Shown piece by piece: positions 1 to 51,092 of a DNA stretch of 64,000 nt. The notes under the pieces were generated by a model, which was given only the letters and a program-made list of their open reading frames with translations, ran no database searches and was not told the origin of the DNA. Position numbers and translations under genes: made by a program. The DNA is from Candidatus Kerfeldbacteria bacterium (lineage in GTDB: Bacteria > Patescibacteriota > Patescibacteriia > SBBC01 > CAIJZX01): assembly GCA_963731735.1 (NCBI GenBank), contig CAVSWO010000002.1, forward strand, positions 529-64,528, given 5' to 3'. Positions within the stretch are counted from its first letter, which is position 1. The number at the start of each line of letters is the position of its first letter.

Positions 1-190
1 ATTCATCTTGATCAAACTTCTTTATAACCTTTGACCAATCAGCGGGTATTAATTCCGCATCGTTGTTTAATAGCATTATGTATCGACCCTTTGAACGTTG
101 AATACCAACATTTGATCCGCCTGAATAACCATGATTCTTTGTTAACAAACATACTGAACTTTCGGAAAAAGTGATTTTATATCTTCCATT
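1..190 (-). pseudogene. Fragment of a family-2 glycosyltransferase (middle region with G-S-N-V-G / KGRYIMLLNNDAEL motifs). It runs off the window start, and its upstream part is cut by an in-frame stop near 190.
   Basis: Manual minus-strand translation of 1-190 gives ...GYSGGSNVGIQRSKGRYIMLLNNDAELIPADWSKVIKKFDQDE. Region is ~35% GC versus ~57% for the window. Confidence 0.4.
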
Positions 191-345
191 CCTTTTTCTG
201 TCGATGCGTTGTCAACAACAATAATTTCAAAAGAATATATGTTTGAAGAATATATTGAATATAGGCACCGTTGAAGTAAAATAAAATTATTATAATTAAC
301 AATAACAAGGCTTACTAACAATTCTGCAGATTGTAGTGAGTTACT

Positions 346-660
346 TTACTCACGCAATGCTAATTTTCGAGTCAACTCCTCCAAGCGTCTATCAGTGCGA
401 CGTACAATAACGTAATTTCGAAACGTTGCTCCAAAAAGTATTAAAATCCCACCAGCCGTCAACAAATCAAACACCCTTGTAAAATGAAGTTTTTCGATGA
501 CGTAGCTTGTTGGCCCCGGTAATAATACAACCGCCGCTAGCCCGACCCATATAATCTGCCAAAAAGAAAACTCCCAAATGGAAAACTCTCGTGCCTATAG
601 TGTAAGAAAGAAAAGTAAGTCATCCATAACACAAAAAGCAATGCAATAATTTGAATCGCG
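346..660 (-). pseudogene. DUF2304-like small three-TM membrane protein (the usual partner of DPM1-like GT2), disrupted by a +1 frameshift.
   Basis: From the ATG at 660 the frame gives MNAIQIIALLFVLWMTYFSFLHYRHESFPFGSFLFGRLYGSG then stops. The next frame continues LAAVVLLPGPTSYVIEKLHFTRVFDLLTAGGILILFGATFRNYVIVRRTDRRLEELTRKLALRE. AT-rich. Confidence 0.4.
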
Positions 661-661
661 T

Positions 662-1321
662 TCATAGAATTCTCCAGGCTAACATATTAATAATTATTCT
701 TATACCATCAATAATGGTCGTGCCTTTATAATTGTCATGGTAGATGGTGGCAACTGGAACCTGAGAAAATGGTACTTTGTGTTTACCAGCATTCACAATC
801 ATTTCTGTTTCAACTGAGTATCGCGCCGAGAGCCAATTAATTTTATCGAATGCCGAAAGCGACAAAGCACGATAACCAGATTGAGTGTCCTCAACTTGTA
901 TTCGAAACAATAGTTGCATGGCTTTTGTTAAAAAAATATTCCCTAATCTAGCAACCAATGGCATCCTTCCGTGAAACTTTCTAATACCAAAAACTATTGC
1001 TGCCCTTCTTTCTTCAATAGGTTTCAACAAGCTTGGAATCTCGTTAGGATCGTGCTGTCCATCCGCATCAATAAATATTGCTGTATCAAAGCCCTGTTGT
1101 GTAGCCCAAACTACGCCCGTTTTTAACGCAGCGCCTTTTCCTAGATTGATAATATGTCGTAGAATATGGACTCGTGAATTTATAGGTAAAGCATCGTGTA
1201 AAGGTATTCGTGAACCATCGTCAATGATAACCACCTGATCAACATACTTCAACGAACCTTCAATTACTGATGGAAGGTGCTTGTTTTCGTTCAGGGCTGG
1301 AATAATAGCTACAGTTTTCAT
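662..1321 (-). CDS. Family-2 glycosyltransferase, dolichyl/polyprenyl-phosphate sugar transferase (DPM1-like).
   Basis: Protein MKTVAIIPALNE...IIDDGS...FIDADGQHDP has GT2 DxD motifs. Start taken at the internal MKT of the track ORF 662..1348, giving a 4-bp overlap with the next gene. Confidence 0.8.
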   Translation of the reverse strand: MKTVAIIPALNENKHLPSVIEGSLKYVDQVVIIDDGSRIPLHDALPINSRVHILRHIINLGKGAALKTGVVWATQQGFDTAIFIDADGQHDPNEIPSLLKPIEERRAAIVFGIRKFHGRMPLVARLGNIFLTKAMQLLFRIQVEDTQSGYRALSLSAFDKINWLSARYSVETEMIVNAGKHKVPFSQVPVATIYHDNYKGTTIIDGIRIIINMLAWRIL

Positions 1322-2244
1322 GCCAGGTAGTTTTCTGCCCACTCCCACGTCTGTACCAACCCTTGATCAAGTCTGACTTCCGGTGTCCATTTCAACTGCT
1401 TCTTCGCCTTTTTCCAGTCCAACGCACTTTTCATCACCTCTCCCGGTAAAGCCAATCGGTGCTTTACCTTTGCTTTCATTTTCGCCGCCTTCATTATTGC
1501 TACAGCTAACGCGTTGACTGATGTCTGTCGACCGGTTCCGATATTAACCTGTCCGTTCACGTTGCTGCGCATAGCGGCTAGATTTGCATTGACCACATCC
1601 GCCACATAGACATAATCCCGCGTCTGCCGCCCGTGACCATTAACCCACAATGGTTGGCCGCGTAAGAGTTGTTGGGCAAAGATTGCCACCACACCGGCTT
1701 CACCTTTCGGGTCTTGTCGTGGACCGTAGACGTTCGCGTACCGGAGGCTAAGAGATGAGAGTTTTTTCACTTGCTCGTAGAATTCAAGGTATTTGTCGAT
1801 CGCCAGTTTGGCAATGCCATAGGGAGCCTCAGGGCGTTCCTGGGCGCTTTCTGGGGTAGGAATTGGCTGGTAATCACCATAAATTGCCCCACCGGTAGAA
1901 GAAAAGATAAAACGCTTTACCTTGGCATCCACACAAGCCTCTAATAAGTTCAGTGTCCCTAGGACATTGACTTTGGCATCAAAGATTGGGTCCTCAATTG
2001 AAGTGCGAACATTTTTTTGTGCCGCAAGATGAAATACTATTTGCGGGCGAATTTTTTTGACAATTGTTGATAGCTTCAACGATCGAATATCAAGTTTGTG
2101 CAATTTGGCACTGGATTGAAGATTCTTTCGCTTGCCGGAAGACAAATCATCAATCACCTGGACTGCATGACCTTTTTGAATCAAAGCATCAACGAGATGT
2201 GACCCGATAAATCCTGCTCCCCCGGTGACGAGGATTCGACTCAT
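1318..2244 (-). CDS. NAD-dependent epimerase/dehydratase (UDP-sugar 4-epimerase-like, short-chain dehydrogenase/reductase (SDR) fold).
   Basis: N-terminal ILVTGGAGFIGSHL Rossmann motif, 308 aa, and the YxxxK region. Confidence 0.85.
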   Translation of the reverse strand: MSRILVTGGAGFIGSHLVDALIQKGHAVQVIDDLSSGKRKNLQSSAKLHKLDIRSLKLSTIVKKIRPQIVFHLAAQKNVRTSIEDPIFDAKVNVLGTLNLLEACVDAKVKRFIFSSTGGAIYGDYQPIPTPESAQERPEAPYGIAKLAIDKYLEFYEQVKKLSSLSLRYANVYGPRQDPKGEAGVVAIFAQQLLRGQPLWVNGHGRQTRDYVYVADVVNANLAAMRSNVNGQVNIGTGRQTSVNALAVAIMKAAKMKAKVKHRLALPGEVMKSALDWKKAKKQLKWTPEVRLDQGLVQTWEWAENYLA

Positions 2245-3278
2245 GCTTCGTTATCACTATACCCTAACGACCCTAAGCCGACTGATCGTAAGCCGCGCAT
2301 ATATTCAATCGTCCGTTTTAAGCCTTCATCCAGCGGCACGACCGGAAACCAGCCCAGTTTCTCGCGAGCTTGCCGGATGGCCGGGATCCCCTGCTTGGTG
2401 GAATACTCCAGCGGAAGTTCGTGACGGATATCCGGCCGAGAGCCGGCCAAGGAAGTAACTTGCTCAGCCACCTGCTGAAAGGTGTGCTCTTCCGGATTCC
2501 CTAAGTTGATTGGCCCGAGTTCATGCGATTGCATCATGCGGGTAATGCCCTCTATCGCGTCGGTAATGAACAGGAATGAGCTAATACTGGTCGGATCGCC
2601 GTGAATCTGGATAGGTTGGTTCTGCAGAGCCATCCGAATAAACTCCGGAATCATTCGACCGTCGTCCAGGCGCATCCGCGGACCGTAGGTATTAAAGAGA
2701 CGGACTATTTTCGCCTCCAATTTGAAACGTTGTCGGTAAGCCACCGTCAGCGCTTCGGCGAAGCGTTTGCCTTCCTGATACGGGGACTTGGGTCCGATCG
2801 GATCAACATAGCCCCAATAGTTTTCCGGGAAGGGCGTTTTTTCCACCGGCTCGCCGTAAATGCTGCCGGTCGACAGCAGTAAAAACTTAGCCCCGAATTT
2901 TTTGGCCATCTCGAGTCCATGGTGCGTCCCGCGAGCGTTGGCCAATAGAGTTTCAACGGTCAACTTGGCGTAATCTTTGGGAGACGACGGGGTGGCGAGA
3001 TGATAAATCTCCTGAATTCCCTGAAACGGCACCTGGAAAGCTTTGAGTTCCTTGAGTTGCTCAAGGTCAATCGGTTCGGTTACATCATGCCGCACGAATT
3101 CGAAATTTGGATTTGGCAGCAGGTGATGAATATTTTCTTCCTGGCCGGTGCTGAAATTATCAATGCAAATGACTTTATGTTTTTGGACCAGGGTGTCGCA
3201 CAGATGGGAACCTAAAAACCCGGCACCGCCGGTAACCACGACGTTCTTTTTTGAAAATGGCGCTTGATGGGTGGTCAT
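2241..3278 (-). CDS. NAD-dependent sugar dehydratase/decarboxylase, UDP-glucuronate decarboxylase (UXS)-like.
   Basis: VVVTGGAGFLGSHLCDTLV...VICIDNFSTG is typical of UXS / dTDP-glucose-dehydratase-like SDRs. 345 aa. Confidence 0.8.
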   Translation of the reverse strand: MTTHQAPFSKKNVVVTGGAGFLGSHLCDTLVQKHKVICIDNFSTGQEENIHHLLPNPNFEFVRHDVTEPIDLEQLKELKAFQVPFQGIQEIYHLATPSSPKDYAKLTVETLLANARGTHHGLEMAKKFGAKFLLLSTGSIYGEPVEKTPFPENYWGYVDPIGPKSPYQEGKRFAEALTVAYRQRFKLEAKIVRLFNTYGPRMRLDDGRMIPEFIRMALQNQPIQIHGDPTSISSFLFITDAIEGITRMMQSHELGPINLGNPEEHTFQQVAEQVTSLAGSRPDIRHELPLEYSTKQGIPAIRQAREKLGWFPVVPLDEGLKRTIEYMRGLRSVGLGSLGYSDNEA

Positions 3279-3985
3279 AGTTTGTTTGGATAATGTCCGC
3301 GGAGTTGATACCAGCGGATTCTAACAATGTCGAGTAAGGTATTCAGGTAATCCCAACCGGCAACTTTACTTTGGGAGTCGTTCAGCCAGCGCACCGGGAG
3401 TTCCAGCAGACGGAAGCCGAATCGACGGGCCAGCCAGAGCAGTTCGAAGTCGAAACCGAATCGGTTGAGTTGCTGGGCGGTAAAGATCGGTTGGGTGCGG
3501 GCCGCAAAGAGTTTAAACCCGCATTGACTATCGCGCACCCCCGGCACCAGCAAGCCTTGAATCAGGAAGTTGCCGAGCTGCCCGAGCAGAACTTTCCACC
3601 AGGCTTGCCGTCGCGCCACCTCGGCTCCGGTGATTCGACGTGAACCAAGGAGAATATCGGCCTGGCCGCGCTGATCCCAGAATCGGCCAAGCTCTTCAAT
3701 CGGCGTCGAAAGATCGGCGTCAGTCAGCAGGCGCCAATCGCCGCGGGCGGCTAACATGCCGGTTCGAACCGCCGCACCTTTGCCGCGATTGTGCTGATGG
3801 TGAATCAGACGAATTTCCAGGCCAGCCGAACGGACGCGTTCAGCGGTGGCATCCGTCGACCCGTCATCAACCACGACGATCTCAGCGGTCCAGGGCTGGG
3901 TTTCAAGGTACGACCGAATTCGGCGCAAACTTTGGGGTAGCCGTTCGGCTTCGTTATAGGCGGGAATGACGATTGATAAATCCAT
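3275..3985 (-). CDS. Family-2 glycosyltransferase.
   Basis: MDLSIVIPAYNEAERL...VVDDGSTD...DADLS motifs. 236 aa. Confidence 0.85.
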   Translation of the reverse strand: MDLSIVIPAYNEAERLPQSLRRIRSYLETQPWTAEIVVVDDGSTDATAERVRSAGLEIRLIHHQHNRGKGAAVRTGMLAARGDWRLLTDADLSTPIEELGRFWDQRGQADILLGSRRITGAEVARRQAWWKVLLGQLGNFLIQGLLVPGVRDSQCGFKLFAARTQPIFTAQQLNRFGFDFELLWLARRFGFRLLELPVRWLNDSQSKVAGWDYLNTLLDIVRIRWYQLRGHYPNKL

Positions 3986-4049
3986 GGACAGCTGAGCTTC
4001 GCCAATAATACAGCACCGCTCGAGACTATACTATACTGAAAAACCGCGC

Positions 4050-4518: not shown

Positions 4519-6889
4519 CTAGCGTAAACCTCCGAGACTTGAGCCACGACCGTCGGTAAACAGATCGTACTGTTTATACAAGTGTCCATCCAGCGTCCAA
4601 TACTGCGCGAAGGTTGCTCCAGTCTTCCCAACCGCCACCAGTTCATCGTACCCGTCCTGATCAACATCTAACCCAAAGATGTCCATTTCGCCGTGGTAGC
4701 GACCGGTATACAAGCGCCAACTGGCCTTGACGACGCCGTGGAGGGTGGTCAAAAAGACCGGCGCGTTCCCGCCGCCTTCGCGCGGCGTGACGATTATTTC
4801 TTGATTACCGTCCCCATCCAGATCGCCGGTCGTGACCGCAAAACCGCCCGTCCATTTGCTCCCTAGCGGTGAGAAAACGCTGATGCGTTGATGTTGCCAG
4901 TTATAAACGCGAACTTCATGGCCGTGGCTCATGGTCACAATTAATTCATCCACCCCATCGCCGTCAATATCCCCGCTGGCCAGTTCCAGGCCGCCCCGAT
5001 AGTGCGCGTAGAGCGTCTGGCTGTCGGTCAGCCGGCCCTGATCATCATACCAGCGGAGCTGGGCGTCTTCGGATCGGGTGGCCACCGCCAGTTGCCCTTG
5101 ACCCGGTCGACGCAGCACGGCCGCGTCAATACTGCCGCGATAGTTCGAACCAAATGGCACCAGGTTGTGGATTTGTTGCCCTTGGGTCGATAAAATTTTC
5201 ACCGAAGTGCCGAAGTATTGTCCGGTCGCGATGATCCGAATGGTCCCATCGTTATCCAATGGCCCGGCCGCCACCTGGACAACGGCTGATTGCAACTGCG
5301 CCGGCCAAGCGCGGAAAAAGGCTGGGTCGGGCCGGTAGAAGCGGATGCCCGGGTCGGCGCTGGTTTGCCCAATGATAATCACGGGTCGTCGATAGCGCCA
5401 TGTGAATGTCCGGGCCGCCGAGGTTTGCCCGCGCGCGTCAACCGTTTGGACGGCCACCTGATAGACGCCTTCGGAATCAAGGGTCGGCGTCAGGCTGGTG
5501 GCGACTTGCTGGACCGCTGTTCCGAGGGCACCAATTTTACCCCACTGCACCAAGTAGGTGGCGCCCGTCGGACCGCTCCAGGTAAACCTGGGTTGGGCGT
5601 ACGGGTACGATTCATTTTGCTGGAGCAGCCGCGTTGTCGGAGCGGGCGAATACCCGACGAAAGAATTCGGCGGCGACGGAGCGCTGGCGCTGCAGCCGGC
5701 CGCCGCCAAGGCCGCATCCACCTGAATTAGGCCGTACCCATATTGACTGTCCCAGCCGCTGCTGCCGAGATCACGAGCGGTGGATTCCAGATACCCGATG
5801 ACCGAGCCGCTGGCGGCTCCACAGGCTTCCAGCAGAGCCGCCGCCGCGCTTACCTGAGCAGTGGCTTGCGAGGTTCCCGAGTACAGAGCCGTCCCGAAGG
5901 CGGTACAGGCGGAGGTGGTGCAGGTTTGCTGCGGAATGCCGTCCATGTAGCCATCACTATTTTGATCGACCAATAAATTCCCACCCGGGGCCATCAAATC
6001 GAGTTGGGACCCCACGTCCGAATACGGCGCCCGGGTATTGTCATACTGGGTGGCGCCGACCGCCACCACTTCGCGATAGGCGGCCGGATAGTCAATTGCT
6101 CCCCCGCCCCCATTCCCGGCCGCCGCCATGATCAAGATGCCTTTGGCGGCGGCGGCCTGCAGGGCGGCCTGCAGGACCGGATCGTCATCGTTACCACCCA
6201 GGCTCAAGTTGATAATATCAGCTCCATGCGCAGCCGCGTAATTGACCGCGGCGGCGATGGTCGTAGTGGTGCCGTTGCCCGCGCTGTTGAGGACTTTGAG
6301 CGGCATAATGGTAGTTTCAAATGCCAGGCCGGCGGCCGCCAGGCTATTGTTGGTAGATTCTGCAATCGTGCCGGTAATATGCGTACCGTGCCCGTTGTCA
6401 TCATTCGGATGGGCGTCCGAATTCACAAAATCCCAACCGTTCCGGTCATCAACATAGCCGTCACCGTCATCATCAATTCCGTTCCCGCGCGATCTCACCA
6501 CGATTGACCCAAAAATGTGTCTGCGCTAAATCAGGCGCTTGCACAAAGCTCCCGGAATTTTCGAACGCCACGCCGGTATCAAGGACGGCCACGACGATAC
6601 TCGGATCACCGCCGTATTTTGGACTGATCGTATCAGCCTCCCAGGCACTGCTCGAACCGACCGCTGAAAAATTCCATTGCAAACTATAATCCGGATCATT
6701 CGGTGTAAACGAAGCATGGTAATACCGTTCCGGCTGTGGAGCCTGGGTAGCAGCGTCGAGGGTAACCAAGCGGCCATCTGGCAAGCGGGCAATGCCGGGC
6801 AGGCCAATCACCGGTTCGGGTGCCGCCGCCTGCGCGACACTGACGGTCAGCCATACGGCGGTGGCGGCAACCAGGATTCTCCAGACCAT
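4519..6889 (-). CDS. Secreted S8-family subtilisin-like serine peptidase with FG-GAP/VCBS-like beta-propeller repeats at the C-terminus. The reading frame is broken by an apparent 1-nt frameshift around 6473-6501.
   Basis: ORF 6473..6889 carries the signal peptide and VAVLDTGV (catalytic Asp). ORF 4519..6501 carries DDNGHGTH (catalytic His), a GTS-type Ser region and repeated GD/DGDG modules. The two ORFs overlap in a CGCGCG run. Confidence 0.7.
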
Positions 6890-10894: not shown

Positions 10895-11165
10895 GATGTT
10901 CTCCTTGTCGAAAGTTATGCGACGTTTCGAAGGTACTGCTTCCAAAGAGCAACCAAGTATCCAGACAGCACAATCAGCCTATCCCACGTTTTTCGGGGAC
11001 AGCCATATGCCATCTAGCCACTGCCTAGACCCTACCAAAAATCCGTCAGTTGTCAACCCCGCGCCACAACCAACGAAGAATTGACTAAAAAAGCCAACGT
11101 ATTGCGTATCCTTGTAAATTACGACCAAAAAAGATTCCCCAGAGTTGCGGTGCGGGGTCAAGTCT

Positions 11166-11194
11166 TTTGACCAACCGCCGGTTGCCCGCTACAA
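11166..11194 (+). promoter_or_regulatory. Promoter TTGACC-N17-TACAAT. The -10 ends 8 nt before the ATG, so the kinase mRNA is likely leaderless.
   Basis: TTGACCaaccgccggttgcccgcTACAAT followed by actcccATG. Confidence 0.55.
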
Positions 11195-11201
11195 TACTCC
11201 C

Positions 11202-11852
11202 ATGTTCATCGGGGTGGTTGGTTGTATGGGGGTCGGGAAATCGAGACTGACCGAGGCTCTGGCTCAGCGGCTTGGGTATCGGGCGTTCTACGAACCGGTC
11301 AAGGAAAATCCGTATTTGGATGATTTTTATGCCGACCCAAAACGCTGGGCGGTGTTGATGCAGTTCTTTATGCTGACCCGGCGGTTTCATCAGCACCTAG
11401 AAGTCCGGGAATTACAAGACAAAGATATCGGGATCGTTCAGGATCAGATAATTTTTGGCGATGTCCTATACGCCACCCTCAATCACCATCAAGGTAATAT
11501 TGATAGGCGTGATTTTGAAAATTATAAAACCCATTTTGAGGCGCTGCGTCCCCTGTTGACTTTGCCGGACGTGATCATCCACCTTGAAACATCGGTCGAT
11601 CAAGTGCTCGACCGGATTCGCGAACGCGGCCGTGCCAGCGAGCAGGCCATCAGCCGAGACTATCTCCAGGCGCTGACCGATCTGTTTGATAGCTGGGTCA
11701 GTTCAGTCGAAGACCAGACAACCGTCCTGCGATTGGATTGGACGAAGTATCAACCGGTTGATGAAGTGGTGCGAACAATCGAAGACCGCTTGCAGGTGCA
11801 GTTACCGATTCCGGTTACGACCCCGCCGAATGCTTCCCCAGCCCCGGCTTGA
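11202..11852 (+). CDS. Deoxynucleoside kinase (dAK/dGK family).
   Basis: P-loop GVVGCMGVGKS, YEPV, and the overall dNK motif order. 216 aa. Confidence 0.8.
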   Translation: MFIGVVGCMGVGKSRLTEALAQRLGYRAFYEPVKENPYLDDFYADPKRWAVLMQFFMLTRRFHQHLEVRELQDKDIGIVQDQIIFGDVLYATLNHHQGNIDRRDFENYKTHFEALRPLLTLPDVIIHLETSVDQVLDRIRERGRASEQAISRDYLQALTDLFDSWVSSVEDQTTVLRLDWTKYQPVDEVVRTIEDRLQVQLPIPVTTPPNASPAPA

Positions 11853-12363
11853 ATCGGATTGGGTTGTTTCGGTCATGTGCCCAGTTGATTGGGTTGAGAC
11901 GAATGTACTCACGAACACGCATTACATCCGATATAGATCTGAGTACGCGTTCATGAAAGGAACGTTGCCAGAGGGAGGCCCCCTGAGTGTTTCTCAGGAT
12001 ATTCACTCGAGCAGCTGCAAAGGTTTTGAATCCCCGAACAATTTCCGTCAATGGATTTTGTTTCACCTGATCGGCCCGCAGGTGGGGGTTTAAACCCCCA
12101 CCTGCGATAGAGGATGGCGCCTGAATAACAATTATTCCATGTACATGGTTTGGCATCAGGACCCAAGCATCGAGCGAACAATGATAGTGCTTTGGCAGAT
12201 CAAGCCAAACGCTCTGCACGGCCAGACCAAACTGGTTGATCAACATTCGTTGATTTTTTATCGATCCAAATAGTAGACGCTTATCTCTCGTGCAGAGAGT
12301 AACGAAATAATATCCTGGTTGTGTATAATCGTAGCCGGGTAAACGCAAAATAGGCCCTCGCAA
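11815..12363 (-). mobile_element. REP-associated tyrosine transposase (RAYT, IS200/IS605-like HUH Y1 transposase).
   Basis: LPGYDYTQPGYYFVTLCT, the HUH motif PNHVHGII and the catalytic Tyr region RVREYIRLNP. Lower GC than its surroundings. Confidence 0.75.
12077..12106. repeat. 30-bp perfect palindrome CGCAGGTGGGGGTTTAAACCCCCACCTGCG (PmeI site at the centre) embedded in the RAYT coding frame.
   Basis: Read directly; it encodes IAGGGLNPHLRA on the minus strand. Confidence 0.9.
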
Positions 12364-12416
12364 GCCACGTGCTCACCATACCAGGTTCCCAGAAGTTTAC
12401 AAGATTTCGATTTCCC

Positions 12417-13484
12417 TTACCGCTTCCCCAGCGCCTGCTTGAGATAATCGACGGTTGGAATTGGGGCCGGATTGAGCCCGCGCAGGGCGGAAAGATACCA
12501 ACTCACGTAACCCCCAAAGGTTAAGAGATCAATCGCCTTCTCCATGGTGTTTTGACCGTGCGGACGGAAGGTCGAAACGCTTAAGCCATTATTTTTCAAA
12601 ATTTTGGCAGTCAACAGCAACCGTCGTTGATTCCGCGGATGATAGGTAGCATCCAGCACCAGCAGAGCATGCATTTGACGAGTCAGGCGCCGATTGCGCA
12701 ACCCTTCGAGCAAATGATGGTTCAAATCCGGAATCAGAAACCAACTGGCCGGGGTTTTGGCATTTTCGTTAATTTGATTGTGCCAGGTATGCAGATTTCC
12801 GGCTGTCCATTCCGCCCCGATCAGCAATGGCCACTTCTTAGCAAACTTCTGGGCGAGTTGCTTGGCCAGATTATCATGACGCGAACGCGAAAAATGATAT
12901 TGCGCGGTTGCGGATCGCGCGCGTTTGATCCACGTCTCAACTTCCCGATCAGGATTCTTGATCCACTGCATTTTCCAGGCCAAGGCCACCAAGGCCATCA
13001 AATTATATCCCACCCCGAGCCGCGGTTGGCCGGATGGGTTGGCACTGGGAACAAATTGCCAGCTGGGAAGCTGGTCCGAGGCGGCCGCCTTCGCGAGCTG
13101 GCCTCCGCTCGTGATCACCACCACCCGCGCTTTACGACGAAGCGCGGCTTTCAGGCAGGTCAGGGTTTCTTCCGTGCTGCCAGAATAACTCGAGGCAATC
13201 ACCAGGGTCTGCCGATCAACCCAAGCCGGAAGTGTATAGTCGGCGATGATCGCGACCGGAACCGGAATTCGATCAGCCCAAACCGAACGAAGAATATCTG
13301 CTCCCAGATGTGATCCCCCCATTCCGCACACCGCGACTTTGGTAATTTTTCGAAAGTCCGCTGGCAGGGTAACCGGTTTGGCCTGGTGCCAGCCGTCGTG
13401 AAGTTGCTCTGAAAATAAATCAAGCGCCGCGCCGACTTTGCCAGGATCGCGTTTGAGCAACGGAAAAGTGTCGAGGGTAGGCAT
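12417..13484 (-). CDS. Bifunctional phosphoglucose/phosphomannose isomerase (SIS-domain PGI/PMI).
   Basis: VAVCGMGGSHLGADIL and SYSGSTEETL SIS motifs. Start taken at MPTLDTF. Confidence 0.8.
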   Translation of the reverse strand: MPTLDTFPLLKRDPGKVGAALDLFSEQLHDGWHQAKPVTLPADFRKITKVAVCGMGGSHLGADILRSVWADRIPVPVAIIADYTLPAWVDRQTLVIASSYSGSTEETLTCLKAALRRKARVVVITSGGQLAKAAASDQLPSWQFVPSANPSGQPRLGVGYNLMALVALAWKMQWIKNPDREVETWIKRARSATAQYHFSRSRHDNLAKQLAQKFAKKWPLLIGAEWTAGNLHTWHNQINENAKTPASWFLIPDLNHHLLEGLRNRRLTRQMHALLVLDATYHPRNQRRLLLTAKILKNNGLSVSTFRPHGQNTMEKAIDLLTFGGYVSWYLSALRGLNPAPIPTVDYLKQALGKR

Positions 13485-13488
13485 AGAA

Positions 13489-14178
13489 TTAGCTGATTTT
13501 TGGTGGAACAAGATGGTGTTTGATCCAGGGCCAAATGGCGGCCACCACAATCAGGAGTACCAGGATTGGCAGCAGGACTGTCCCCCAACTCCAACCGGCC
13601 CAAATCTGCGTGAACCACCAGCGACGTGGGTACGTTAACCAAGCCGCGACCGGATCAATCTGACGTGGAACTACGCGGAGCTGATATCGCCCCGGGGTGC
13701 TTGAGGCCGTGTAGACGGCCGCGTAGTAATCACCGTCGGCCGGTAAACGTAACTCTTTGGCCACCAATTGTTTGGCGCCGCTTTGCGTCAGCCAGGAAAA
13801 TACTTTGGTCGGATTCATGCCCGGATAGATGGTGGCCAAGGTGTTCGCCGGTTGTTCAATCGGGAGCACCGGTCCGGCCGTGATCGAATCTGGAGAAAAC
13901 ACCACCAGCCGCGGGGCGAATTTCTCGGCCGTGGAATTTGGCACTTCCAAATAAATTCGAAGATGCTGATCGGCTTGGCCAGTCCAGTGATAGACTCGGC
14001 TATCGCCGTCGCCTTGCAGGACGCCGAAACGAACCTGTTCCTGTTTGGACAAGTCGAGTGGCAAAGCCGTTTGCCAAGCGTTATGTCCGCGATCGACCCG
14101 GACCACGGCGGCCTGGGTCGCCAATGGCCACGTCAGGCCCAAAATCGCGAAAGCGAGAATCCAAGGTCGAACAAGCAT
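13489..14178 (-). CDS. Secreted protein with a C-terminal membrane anchor, hypothetical.
   Basis: Signal peptide MLVRPWILAFAILGLTWPLATQA and a C-terminal hydrophobic stretch. Confidence 0.5.
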   Translation of the reverse strand: MLVRPWILAFAILGLTWPLATQAAVVRVDRGHNAWQTALPLDLSKQEQVRFGVLQGDGDSRVYHWTGQADQHLRIYLEVPNSTAEKFAPRLVVFSPDSITAGPVLPIEQPANTLATIYPGMNPTKVFSWLTQSGAKQLVAKELRLPADGDYYAAVYTASSTPGRYQLRVVPRQIDPVAAWLTYPRRWWFTQIWAGWSWGTVLLPILVLLIVVAAIWPWIKHHLVPPKIS

Positions 14179-26181: not shown

Positions 26182-26706
26182 TCAAACGCGATAGCGGTAG
26201 ACCACCACCCGGCCCTCGGGTTTCTCCCGGGCTTCCGGTGTCCATCCGGCAATTGAAAAGACTGCCGAAATAATTCGCGTTCCCGGCCGGAGTTCGCGTT
26301 TGAACTTCGGACCCAATTTTTTCATAGCCTCGGGCGTCAAAAAGCAAAATACCACATCGGCTGCCGACAAGTCTTGGTGAAAAAAATCCTGCAGCCGGAT
26401 CGACGCGCGCGTCCGGAGTCCGGCCGCCGCGATTCGCATCCAGGCCGCCAACCAAACTGGCAATGACAGCTCATACCCGATCGCCCGCAGGTTCGGGAAG
26501 CGCTTGGCCGCGGTGAGCAGAATCCGTCCGTCACCGGCCCCTAAATCCACAATCGTTTCGCCGTCCTTGAGCGCGGCCATGGTTAGCATCCGTTCCACGT
26601 CTCGACTGCGGGTTGGAACATACGGTGCCGCCCGCCAGGCACCCCAAGCGGTCGTGATCGCAGACACAACGACCACCAGTAATACGACCAGCCAGATCAG
26701 ACTCAT
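26182..26706 (-). CDS. Class I SAM-dependent methyltransferase with an N-terminal TM helix.
   Basis: IVDLGAGDGRILLTAA motif I. Confidence 0.7.
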   Translation of the reverse strand: MSLIWLVVLLVVVVSAITTAWGAWRAAPYVPTRSRDVERMLTMAALKDGETIVDLGAGDGRILLTAAKRFPNLRAIGYELSLPVWLAAWMRIAAAGLRTRASIRLQDFFHQDLSAADVVFCFLTPEAMKKLGPKFKRELRPGTRIISAVFSIAGWTPEAREKPEGRVVVYRYRV

Positions 26707-29246
26707 GTGCCGCGCGGTTCAGTCATCGGCATCGGAGCCGCCGCCACAGCTCCAAGCTGCGTGCGGGATAAAATTTCTTGTTCGACATAGGCTCGATCTT
26801 TGCCGTACCGTAATCGGGCGTATTCCCGAATCGCTTCAGCCATCCGCGGGTGGCCCGGTTGCGGCGGATAGGTTTGTAAATGAAATGGCGGCGCTTGGGT
26901 ATTATTAATCAGTAACCGGATGTAGGCGGTGTAGCGTTCTTGATTGACCAGGTCGAAAGCCGAGAAGGTCGGCTCAAATTGTTTGGCTAATATTTCGGCA
27001 TCCTCGACACCAACCCGGAAGGCGATCATCGTGCCGACGTTCCCGAGTACCGCTTCTTGCACTTTAGCATCACCAGCTTGGACCAGCTGTCCCATGTATT
27101 GATGGGCCATGGTCAGGTTCAGCCGGTATTTTCGCGCTTCGGATAAAATGGTGGCGATCGAGTCGGTGATAAAATTCTGAAACTCATCCAGGTAGAGATA
27201 GAAGTCCGGCCGCTGGTCTTCCGGCACGTTGGTCCGGGCCAAGGCCGCCATTTGTAACTTCGACACAATAATCAGGCCCAGCAAGTTGGCATTGACTTCG
27301 CCGACTTTGCCTTTGGCCAAATTGACCAGCAGAATTTTTCGGCCATCCATAATCTCCCGGAAGTTAAATCCCGAGCGCGGTTGACCGATGATATTCCGCA
27401 TCATGGCATTTTCCACGAACCGCCCGACTTTCGAAATCAAGTAGCCCAGCATTTCGGATTTATGGAAATCGGAGGTCTTGGCCATTTCCTTTTCCCAGAA
27501 AGCCCGGACGACTGGGTCTTTAACCTTGGCGACCTTGGCTTGCTGAAAAGCTTTATCCGTGAACATCCGCGGAATATCGGCAATCGTACCCGGATGCTCT
27601 TCGTCTTCCATTAGGGTCAGCATGGCATTGCGCATATTGTGTTCGAACATCGGTCCGACCATCTCGGGCGGAAAGAGTTTCATGAAAATCGCAATCATTT
27701 CCTGAACCGCGAAATCTCGCTCCTCCGGCGTTTTCGCTTCGAGCATATTCAAGCCCACCGGCCGTTCGGTATCACCCGGCTCAAACATAATCACATCGTG
27801 CATCCGTTCTTTCGGAATCCCCTCCAAAATATCTTCCACCAGGCTGCCATGCGGATCGACCACGCAGACGCCTTGACCGGACGCAATGTCCTGTTTAGCC
27901 ATCTCGGCCATCAGCACCGATTTTCCGGAACCGGTGGTGCCGACGATGTAGACATGGCGCCGGCGATCTTCCGCCGCCAAGCGAATTTGGTGATCTTCGC
28001 CACGATACAGATTGTGTCCCAGTAAAATGCCCTGGACCGGTAAATCTGCCGGCGCCCCGGCGCGTTTGGCCGCCAGCCATTCAATATTCGGGGCCGGCGT
28101 GTCCGGCAACGGAAAGTGGTATAAGCTGTTGACTTCCTCACTATTGAGAATCATGCCGTTCTGCGGGCGGAAGTGCCGATAGATGAAATCGTGAATCATC
28201 TGGCCGCCGTGAGCAATCGCGCGCGGCTTGAAACCGTTGCCCGAGTCGATGGCCGTAAACTGACTGAAGGCGTTGATAATATTTTCCAGGTGTATCCGCA
28301 CGTTGCGTTCATTCGGTGAAGCGGTCACGATCCGGATGTTGACGTCAAAGCCCGGCTTGCCGGCCTTGTCTTCCAGCGAACGCACCAAGGATTGTTCCAT
28401 CGGCGTTAATTGATGAGCCCCGCCGTATGCGTAGTCTGACTGTTTGGGCGTGGATTTGAGCGAAGCCGTCAGGAATCCGGTCATTGAGCTCCCCGATGTT
28501 TTGGCCGGTTGGCCAGCCTGCATCCGGTGGGCCAGCGCTTTGCCGGCCCGTTGCCAACCGGCCGACTTGGGACGTATCAAGAGTTGGATAGCCGCCCCTT
28601 CGTCTGGCTGCACTTTGCTCATAACATTCGCAATCGCGTAGAGCGGATCGCTTTCAAGTTGCTTGTAGGTCCGAATCGGATAAGCGGCTGGTTTCGTCAG
28701 CCGCATGGAGGTAGCTAAAATATGCGTTTGCGAGGCAAACAGATTATAGTCTACGACTTCCTCAATCTGGGCGTGCGGATACTGAGCTTGAATCTGGAGT
28801 TCAACCAATTGCCGCAGATCGCGCGGGACGCCCAGGTAAAAATGAATTCGCCCGTCGTGCGCGACCAGCTCCAAAGCCAGGTGTCGCGGCGTGCTAAACC
28901 AGAATTGATGCCAAGCTCGCGCCAGCGGGTTGCCGGCTTGATTCGGCCGCAGATTCCCGAGGGTGATAAACAGCGTTTCAAATCCTGCTAAGACTTCTTG
29001 CCACTCCTTATGCTCCAATTCTTTTCGCCAGGATTCTTTGGGTAAGCGCACTTTCAGCACCAAATATTCCAGGGCGGACGGAATCAACCGTTGCCGCTGT
29101 AACCACCAGCGCAATCCAAATACCACCCCAAGCACACCGAGTACTAACCCTAACCCAACCCACAGCCACGTCAATTGCGTAGCGGCTTGATGGGCCGCGC
29201 CAGTCAGCACGTTGGTATCTGGATTAAGACCCTGGGCGAGTAGCAT
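26703..29246 (-). CDS. VirD4/TraG/TraD-like type-IV coupling-protein-family P-loop ATPase (membrane-anchored).
   Basis: N-terminal TMs and Walker A VYIVGTTGSGKS. 847 aa with conjugative-coupling-protein-like architecture. The family call rests on pattern, not on alignment. Confidence 0.55.
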   Translation of the reverse strand: MLLAQGLNPDTNVLTGAAHQAATQLTWLWVGLGLVLGVLGVVFGLRWWLQRQRLIPSALEYLVLKVRLPKESWRKELEHKEWQEVLAGFETLFITLGNLRPNQAGNPLARAWHQFWFSTPRHLALELVAHDGRIHFYLGVPRDLRQLVELQIQAQYPHAQIEEVVDYNLFASQTHILATSMRLTKPAAYPIRTYKQLESDPLYAIANVMSKVQPDEGAAIQLLIRPKSAGWQRAGKALAHRMQAGQPAKTSGSSMTGFLTASLKSTPKQSDYAYGGAHQLTPMEQSLVRSLEDKAGKPGFDVNIRIVTASPNERNVRIHLENIINAFSQFTAIDSGNGFKPRAIAHGGQMIHDFIYRHFRPQNGMILNSEEVNSLYHFPLPDTPAPNIEWLAAKRAGAPADLPVQGILLGHNLYRGEDHQIRLAAEDRRRHVYIVGTTGSGKSVLMAEMAKQDIASGQGVCVVDPHGSLVEDILEGIPKERMHDVIMFEPGDTERPVGLNMLEAKTPEERDFAVQEMIAIFMKLFPPEMVGPMFEHNMRNAMLTLMEDEEHPGTIADIPRMFTDKAFQQAKVAKVKDPVVRAFWEKEMAKTSDFHKSEMLGYLISKVGRFVENAMMRNIIGQPRSGFNFREIMDGRKILLVNLAKGKVGEVNANLLGLIIVSKLQMAALARTNVPEDQRPDFYLYLDEFQNFITDSIATILSEARKYRLNLTMAHQYMGQLVQAGDAKVQEAVLGNVGTMIAFRVGVEDAEILAKQFEPTFSAFDLVNQERYTAYIRLLINNTQAPPFHLQTYPPQPGHPRMAEAIREYARLRYGKDRAYVEQEILSRTQLGAVAAAPMPMTEPRGT

Positions 29247-46631: not shown

Positions 46632-46660
46632 CCGGCCGTTGCGCGAAGCGCAACGGCCGG
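46632..46660 (+). terminator. Long GC hairpin (ccggccgttgcgc-gaa-gcgcaacggccgg) with a weak U tract.
   Basis: Read directly. Confidence 0.5.
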
Positions 46661-50976: not shown

Positions 50977-51092
50977 AGGTGTTCCTCGAGTGGACCCGGG
51001 AGATTCCCCTGTGCGTAGCCAGAGCCATGCTTGGAAAAATACTTCCCGGACCCGCTTGAGGCCGCGTCGCCGGCCGGCGACGCGGCTACCCG

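Follow-up and report, generated by a model that had tools for sequence, protein, structure and literature searches.

A perfect palindrome, very probably a REP-type hairpin, lies in frame within the variable loop of a RAYT-like gene from a CPR bacterium

The closest described system is subclass 2.4 of the TnpA-Y1 proteins (RAYT group 4) of Quentin, Siguier, Chandler, and Fichant (2018, BMC Genomics 19:475, PMC6006769). Proteins of this subclass carry the HuH motif NH[IFV]H, a WQ motif, and the Y motif YIxNNP and have a median length of 194 aa. Their median HuH-to-Y distance is 88 aa compared to 58 to 67 aa in most subclasses; the variable insertion between beta3 and alphaC is enlarged, and helix alphaB ends with an 8-aa insertion (PMC6006769). 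Their hosts are Cyanobacteria, Bacteroidetes, and various other phyla (PMC6006769). REPs inserted within tnpA-REP genes were described for this subclass and are of the “long” or “double foot” type, 5′ GT[AG]G ... C[TC]AC 3′; the insertion region was held by the authors to be a peripheral loop with little impact on activity (PMC6006769). In Table S1 of that paper, GTAGGGGC occurs 105 times, subclass 2.4 REP entries included (PMC6006769). This one short description of 2018 is the account that exists of internal REPs (PMC6006769): no later paper treating them was found in the literature, and a literature search on the string GTAGGGGC returned nothing relevant.

The E. coli TnpA-REP protein provides the biochemical reference. 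GTAG is needed for cleavage in E. coli (PMC3733652), and roles in binding the GTAG guide have been assigned to individual residues of the protein (PMC6006769). In other settings, GTAG-tagged REPs are translated in frame inside other genes (Di Nocera et al., 2013, BMC Genomics 14:522, PMC3733652), and RPEs are present in protein genes of Rickettsia (as cited in PMC3733652).

The locus considered here is part of a 64-kb stretch of DNA (64,000 nt; below, the window) from a CPR/Patescibacteria bacterium (Kerfeldbacteria-like). The DnaK encoded in the window is 100% identical to a database protein from an 822,872-bp contig, and the closest named relatives are Candidatus Kerfeldbacteria. The initial annotation had reported an intact REP-associated tyrosine transposase (RAYT) gene with a perfect 30-bp palindrome in the linker between the HUH motif and the catalytic Tyr. 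The window contains no other Y1 gene. The protein passes the gathering threshold of Pfam Y1_Tnp (PF01797; 25.4 bits, threshold 23). The best NCBIfam family is REP_Tyr_transpos (NF047646), whose score of 65.7 bits is under the curated equivalog cut-off of 80; the IS200 model NF033573 scored 18.1 and did not reach its cut-off of 55. When a profile of 42 homologs was compared to the PDB, 4ER8 (E. coli TnpA-REP) was the only sequence match. An AlphaFold2 model (pLDDT 88, pTM 0.81) gave 4ER8_A as the best Foldseek match (E = 4.7e-7), followed by IS200/IS605 transposases. Every invariant column of the family alignment is present in the protein. In a collection of 5.8 billion proteins, no entry was identical to it, and the best match had 59% identity. 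Sequence and structural model together indicate that the gene is an intact gene for a RAYT-type HUH/Y1 protein, as initially annotated.

The placement of the palindrome also agreed with the annotation. The HUH context, N72-H73-V74-H75, fits the subclass 2.4 motif NH[IFV]H, and the distance from H75 to Y153 is 78 aa. The Y motif is YIRLNP (from Y153) in the window protein and in the whole close clade, and YIxNNP in many wider homologs. Residues aligned to those that bind the GTAG guide in E. coli TnpA-REP are listed in Table 1; H101 of the E. coli protein corresponds to R139. The spacer between HUH and W comprises ~46 profile positions in the family versus ~19 residues in 4ER8. Residues 81 to 104 form the only internal low-confidence stretch of the model: block means of pLDDT are 69 and 57 for residues 81 to 100, and at least 93 for the blocks covering residues 11 to 80 and 101 to 160. 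The palindrome encodes residues 86 to 96, inside this loop. In the RAYT frame it is translated as I-A-G-G-G-L-N-P-H-L-R-A, between HVHGII (HUH) and RVREYIRLNP (Y153).

Table 1. Coordinates of the palindrome, its host gene, and neighboring genes (window positions).
Feature	Position	Strand	Basis or remark
Palindrome, 30 bp, perfect	12077..12106	strandless (identical hairpin from either strand)	sequence, hairpin scan, folding
Centre GGGTTTAAACCC	12086..12097	strandless	invariant in 8/8 of closest clade; GTTTAAAC inside at 12088-12095
Inner GTGG...CCAC segment	12082..12101	strandless	fits “double foot” wording GT[AG]G...C[TC]AC (PMC6006769)
Outermost foot GCAG/CTGC	12078-12081 and 12102-12105		GTAG/CTAC at this place in most of the family
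RAYT/TnpA-REP-like HUH Y1 gene, intact, 182 aa + stop	11815..12363	-	ORF, domain, and fold evidence
HUH motif H73-V74-H75 (CAT GTA CAT)	12139..12147	-	family alignment, alignment to 4ER8
Loop codons, residues 81-104	12052..12123	-	low pLDDT; between HUH beta-strand (73-80) and helix 105-124
W132-Q133...E138-R139...R142	11938..11970	-	aligned to GTAG-guide-binding W94, Q95, E100, H101, R104 of E. coli TnpA-REP
Y153 codon (motif REYIRLNP)	11905..11907	-	aligned to catalytic Y115 of E. coli TnpA-REP
Deoxynucleoside kinase gene (context)	11145..11852	+	convergent; overlaps RAYT 3′ end by 38 nt
SIS/bacterial PGI gene (context)	12417..13550	-	upstream, same strand, 53 nt before RAYT start

The palindrome itself, CGCAGGTGGGGGTTTAAACCCCCACCTGCG, is exactly as it had been described: two 15-nt arms, CGCAGGTGGGGGTTT and AAACCCCCACCTGCG, with a spacer of 0, 100% complementarity, and GTTTAAAC at the center. 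Its foot is a variant one. The outermost ends are GCAG...CTGC, with the GTGG...CCAC pair 5 nt further in, and across the closest clade (defined below) the foot position reads G[CT]A[GC]. The calculated folding energy is −18.4 kcal/mol as single-stranded DNA and −34.9 kcal/mol as RNA (z ~ −4.2 for both). In a scan of the 64 kb for perfect hairpins with a stem of at least 8 bp, it was the longest of the 28 found; the other 27 are unrelated to it and to one another. Two other strong hairpins of the window, both with 13-bp stems and without relation to the RAYT palindrome, are a perfect palindrome at 51061-51086, GCCGCGTCGCCGGCCGGCGACGCGGC, and CCGGCCGTTGCGC-GAA-GCGCAACGGCCGG at 46632-46660.

No second copy of the 30-mer was detected in the 64-kb window with up to 3 mismatches allowed, and none of 100 dinucleotide shuffles matched it. 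Searches of the same 64 kb with the 30-mer, a 20-mer core, and a 13-mer half-site (mismatches allowed), together with the general hairpin scan, revealed no REP family above chance. REPs are by definition repeated and dispersed, as well as extragenic, whereas the window palindrome is present as one copy in 64 kb and is located within an ORF; REPs inside genes are, however, documented (PMC6006769, PMC3733652). An Rfam search of positions 11000-13000 gave no match at E ≤ 1, so that a known structured RNA at the palindrome was rejected; in the whole window, Rfam matched two tRNAs only. Scans for promoter and terminator consensus sequences stayed at chance level. The palindrome is not an intrinsic terminator, since a T-run is missing after the hairpin.

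The gene lies between a convergent deoxynucleoside kinase gene and a PGI/SIS gene, and no REP was found within 1 kb on either flank. A lower GC content of the region had been taken as a sign that the element was acquired. The first part of this claim is weakly true: the ORF has a GC content of 0.486, the window one of 0.548 on average (z = −1.44; among stretches of the same size, 5.8% are as low), and GC3 is 0.48 compared to ~0.59 in both neighbor genes. Horizontal acquisition was set aside, as a z of −1.44 is too weak to indicate it. Elsewhere in the window, the first 4 kb (1-4000) have a GC content of 0.47 compared to the mean of 0.55, and an 847-aa protein with TrwB/TraG/VirD4-type coupling-protein domains is encoded at 26703-29246 on the minus strand and points to machinery for conjugation or type IV secretion in this CPR genome.

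To place the symmetry against a coding background, synonymous codons of the ORF were resampled by its own codon usage in 300 trials, and the longest perfect stem was scored in each. A 15-bp stem was reached in 0/300 resamples (null mean 6.1, maximum 10 bp), so that the palindrome goes beyond what the peptide sequence alone would produce. We then compared the gene to its seven closest homologs with retrievable DNA, which share 51 to 60% protein identity with the window RAYT and come from CPR-like contexts; together, these eight genes are referred to as the closest clade (n = 8). A TTTAAA-centered palindrome is kept in 8/8 genes, in the same reading frame (“GLNP”). The stems differ through compensated changes: the window stem is GGTGGGGG...CCCCCACC, that of L081 and L087 is GGCGGGGG...CCCCCGCC, that of L082 is GCTGCGGG...CCCGCAGC, and that of L088 is CCGGTGGG...CCCACCGG; in L084 the perfect stem extends to 25 bp. 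In the 30-column alignment of the clade, 99% of cells are paired and two-sided changes are present at 5/15 pairs; none of 500 shuffles equaled the observed covariation score. The linker around the palindrome is free in length and sequence across the clade, while the center is fixed. The conserved entity is thus the DNA symmetry rather than the peptide.

The wider set comprised 80 further homolog loci from Chloroflexota, Cyanobacteria, Nitrospirota, Planctomycetota, Bacteroidales, Patescibacteria, and others. A perfect in-ORF stem of at least 10 bp was found in 56/89 genes and one of at least 14 bp in 36/89; the hairpin starts 10 to 80 nt past the HUH motif in most genes. The linker comparison that the annotation had proposed therefore shows palindromic DNA at the same place in homologs. 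The usual family form is GTAGGGGC-N12/13-GCCCCTAC. In the 28-nt class, the GTAG...CTAC foot is invariant and two-sided changes occur at 9/14 pairs; these changes are real, while the percentage of paired positions is inflated in this set, which was picked for being palindromic. Approximately a quarter to a third of the family genes have no good palindrome yet appear intact.

Several family members bear additional hairpins. Two tandem palindrome copies are present in one linker in L003 (6156-6206), L017 (10256-10335), L024, L028, and L063, e.g., VGAGLRPARIKRAGLRPAPT, which marks the loop as a dynamic site at which REPs duplicate. L009 (Rhizonema) has a different hairpin, AATGCAATTGAATAATTTTGGAAGAATTATTCAATTGCATT, which is AT-rich and has a perfect stem of 17 bp around a loop of 7 nt; it is placed in frame in the N-terminal half of the RAYT gene, ~112 nt upstream of HUH.

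These comparisons bear on the idea that a Gly/Pro-rich linker peptide (AGGGLNPHLR or VGAGFKPAPT) is what selection acts on and that the symmetry of the DNA is a by-product. The motif is indeed recognizable across the alignment, and “GLNP” is kept in the close clade. However, one and the same 28-mer is read in two frames, giving the unrelated peptides VGARHAVPL in L030 and L061 and CRGTACRAPT in L073; the third frame, which gives a TAG stop, is never in use among family genes. The inner stem varies freely yet is always compensated, the loop is predicted to be disordered, and identical palindromes are present in noncoding DNA. The frame switching, together with the synonymous null (0/300), effectively excludes a peptide-level origin of the symmetry, which we consider extremely improbable.

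The core stems contain almost no wobble pairs, and stem mismatches (24 G.T versus 28 A.C) show no sense-strand bias. This pattern fits a DNA palindrome that is symmetric with respect to the two strands better than an mRNA structure, and a sense-strand RNA structure was rejected given the lack of both G.U excess and strand bias. Perfect Watson-Crick symmetry can also be produced by quasipalindrome correction, i.e., intrastrand template switching during replication. A purely mutational explanation would then hold that an ancient insertion, no longer interacting with the enzyme, is kept perfect by template switching; strict Watson-Crick symmetry, missing wobble pairs, and two-sided changes are the outcome expected from templated correction. 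Left unexplained by it are the GTAG/GGGC foot and the invariant center, both conserved across phyla, the enrichment of identical copies beside the gene, and the conserved GTAG-binding residues of the protein. We judge this explanation very unlikely.

The relation of internal palindromes to REPs outside the genes was assessed at the homolog loci. The density of double-foot palindromes is 0.71 per kb inside RAYT genes compared to 0.024 per kb outside, an ~30-fold difference. Outside the genes, 28 copies were found in 1.17 Mb, half of which (14/28) are within 300 nt of the gene; canonical REPs with a GT[AG]G foot are present within ±1000 nt at ~15/80 of the wider homolog loci but not at the window gene. 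Among the 17 loci with both kinds of copies, the inner 8-mer of the internal copy was common to an external copy in 10, while a permutation test gave a mean of 1.6, and 0/2000 permutations reached 10. In those homolog genomes, the internal copy is therefore a member of the local REP population.

A search for related copies, as the annotation had suggested, thus bore fruit in other genomes, where dispersed extragenic palindromes exist, but not in the 64-kb window. In JGI metagenomes, the exact window-type palindrome had 0 matches. A relaxed pattern, restricted to the clade-invariant positions (CG-A-N5-GGGTTTAAACCC-N5-T-CG), gave 59 matches at 58 loci. Although the N positions are free, 53 of the 59 matches are self-complementary at 14 or more of 15 positions; one match only lies within a detectable RAYT gene of this family.

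Some of these metagenomic loci deserve separate mention. The assembly JAESGF01 contains seven copies on six contigs (L105, L108, L117, L120, L121, L128, and L145). At these loci, as well as at L112 and L113, the copies are dispersed CGTAG-N5-GGGTTTAAACCC-N5-CTACG palindromes outside RAYT genes; the interior ones have perfect arms of 32 to 42 bp whose outer part is locus-specific, and T-runs follow some of them. The impression is that of a REP core placed at the tip of terminator-like hairpins that already existed. Long extensions in L106, L127, and L133, where the palindrome lies within ~60 nt of a contig end and perfect complementarity continues up to that end (arms of up to 62 nt), were discarded as probable assembler fold-back artefacts. 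A window-like palindrome with the GCAG foot, GCAGGGTGGGGTTTAAACCCCACCCTGC, is present twice, ~480 to 520 bp apart, in AT-rich noncoding DNA (L094, 82-115 and 562-592; L095, 224-254 and 742-775). One of the copies precedes an RNase P RNA gene (L094, 607-985) by 15 nt. A protein with a T9SS sorting domain is encoded on the contig, which may therefore belong to Bacteroidota. The metagenome contig L111 (Ga0154020_10006510, 6150-6600) carries the palindrome TTCGTAGCCCCGGGTTTAAACCCGGGGCTACGAAA in two identical copies, one at 6230 and one at 6519, and between them lies the N-terminal half of a Y1 gene that belongs to another subclass (…NYHLIFSTKRR…HVDHLHLLASLRPT). The ORF ends just past the second palindrome, a few residues after HUH, and is followed by a histidine-phosphatase-like gene. 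This arrangement resembles the outcome of a deletion between two REPs by which the transposase was truncated at an internal REP. It is the single hint toward the recombination hotspot that the initial annotation had listed among its options.

The flanks of the seven closest relatives (~78 kb) contained no external copy, nor did the ~142 kb that result when the window is included. This absence is only suggestive, since external copies are also sparse in the wider family (28 in 1.17 Mb). In L082/L083, L086, and L088, the RAYT gene is embedded in a conserved order of genes for UvrD helicase, RAYT, SpoU methylase, mraZ, rsmH, and PBP on CPR-like contigs; the conserved UvrD-RAYT-SpoU neighborhood points to stable vertical inheritance at these loci. 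The window gene, with its PGI/SIS and deoxynucleoside kinase neighbors, does not share this synteny. The three clade members that are syntenic orthologs (UvrD-RAYT-SpoU-mraZ) have stems that differ at several compensated positions. Persistence of the palindrome through 40 to 50% protein divergence at syntenic loci could reflect selection on the hairpin rather than passive tolerance.

An alternative is that the hairpin is a selected site, kept because the RAYT needs its cognate site in cis. Such a site could act in autoregulation, either through binding of the enzyme to the hairpin in the single-stranded DNA or mRNA of its own gene or through stalling of ribosomes or RNA polymerase by the hairpin; it could also be a “seed” REP that cannot be separated from the gene and moves along with it. 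Selection in cis would account for the preservation of palindromes in one frame in 8/8 clade genes despite the 40 to 50% divergence of the proteins, for the compensated stems of the three orthologs, for the lack of an external copy in ~142 kb, and for a linker that varies around an invariant center; the RNA hairpin, at −34.9 kcal/mol, would also be very stable. The near absence of wobble pairs and the lack of sense-strand bias nevertheless speak against a structure at the RNA level; the missing T-run does not allow an intrinsic terminator, and Rfam gave no match. Also against a selected site are the intact-looking genes without a good palindrome, approximately a quarter to a third of the family, and the internal copies of other genomes, which simply reflect the REPs found outside the gene. 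Overall, we consider a selected cis-acting site possible but rather unlikely. In its strictest form, the palindrome would be the genome's only REP copy, selected in situ as the obligatory cis site of a domesticated HUH enzyme, and the GCAG foot of the palindrome may be bound without cleavage. This version, too, appears doubtful; if it were true, internal REPs would have a function within RAYT genes instead of being insertions that are merely tolerated.

The reading that we favor, with a probability of roughly 0.7, is that the palindrome is a REP-type (“double-foot”) hairpin of the subclass 2.4 kind, located in frame in the variable loop of the RAYT gene as a tolerated, self-maintaining site. 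The identity of the element and the gene, a REP-type hairpin in a RAYT-like gene, is considerably more secure and very likely correct. Among the options offered by the initial annotation, a REP inserted and tolerated in a linker corresponds to the published description of this gene family (PMC6006769). The palindrome would mainly be a cognate site that is tolerated and maintains itself, and regulation, if there is any, would be secondary. Against this reading stand the missing second copy in ~142 kb, an outermost foot that reads GCAG although GTAG is needed for cleavage in E. coli (PMC3733652), and the protein score under the NCBIfam RAYT cut-off (65.7 bits, cut-off 80).

A plausible route to this state can be outlined by extrapolation from the biochemistry and structure of E. 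coli TnpA-REP. When the DNA is single-stranded, either strand would fold into an identical 13- to 15-bp hairpin, which is the kind of substrate that the enzyme would bind via hairpin and foot and could cleave and rejoin with the HUH motif and Y153. Given the tendency of such enzymes to act in cis, an accumulation of REP copies beside and inside their own gene would be expected. The survivors would be only those copies that are in frame within the structurally tolerant loop, and the surviving internal copies would then be homogenized with the other REPs of the genome. In the CPR lineage of the window, perfection of the palindrome is most likely maintained by hairpin-templated (quasipalindrome) correction, selection on the hairpin, or both. 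For this lineage, a REP population would be a prediction of the model; no second copy was found in ~142 kb.

The pattern of internal REPs has been known since 2018; new here are the CPR host group and the variant foot. The window provides a clean example from a small-genome CPR bacterium that mainly confirms the published pattern. What is added is comparative evidence for a conserved hairpin over a conserved peptide, consisting of compensated stems, the use of two frames, and concordance between internal and flanking copies. Should the internal copy prove to be a required cis site, it would offer a direct handle on the role of domesticated RAYTs.

Compared to known systems, the locus is closest to subclass 2.4. 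The gene has the HuH and WQ motifs, a long loop, and an internal REP; the 78 aa between H75 and Y153 and the low-pLDDT loop at residues 81 to 104 agree with a long insertion, and in homologs, long or double-foot REPs of the GTAGGGGC type occur both within the gene and next to it. It differs in the lack of a flanking REP within 1 kb and of another copy in 64 kb, in an outer foot that reads GCAG/CTGC with GTGG/CCAC only further in, in a Tyr motif that is YIRLNP and not YIxNNP, and in a CPR host, a group unnamed in the taxonomic summary of Quentin et al. The protein shares its fold with E. coli TnpA-REP (YafM; 4ER8), and HUH, the catalytic Tyr, and the W/Q/E/R guide-binding residues align; the predicted substrate class, a GC-rich hairpin with a tetranucleotide foot, is also that of the E. 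coli REP/BIME system. The two proteins are, however, only ~17% identical. In the E. coli gene, the spacer from HUH to W is short and an internal REP is missing, and the REPs of E. coli are imperfect, have a single foot, lie outside genes, and are present in high copy number (PMC6006769). With IS200/IS605 TnpA and its subterminal LE/RE hairpins, the window protein would share Y1 HUH chemistry and recognition of single-stranded DNA hairpins, and its structural matches include the ISDra2, IS608, and IS200 TnpA proteins; unlike these elements, the window gene is present in a single copy in the window, has neither a terminal or flanking hairpin pair nor tnpB, and carries its hairpin inside the ORF. 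Finally, REPs and RPEs translated in frame inside other genes are likewise short palindromic repeats that give rise to a surface peptide and do not destroy the host protein. Here, however, the repeat sits in the gene of its own presumed transposase, and its position is conserved family-wide rather than sporadic.
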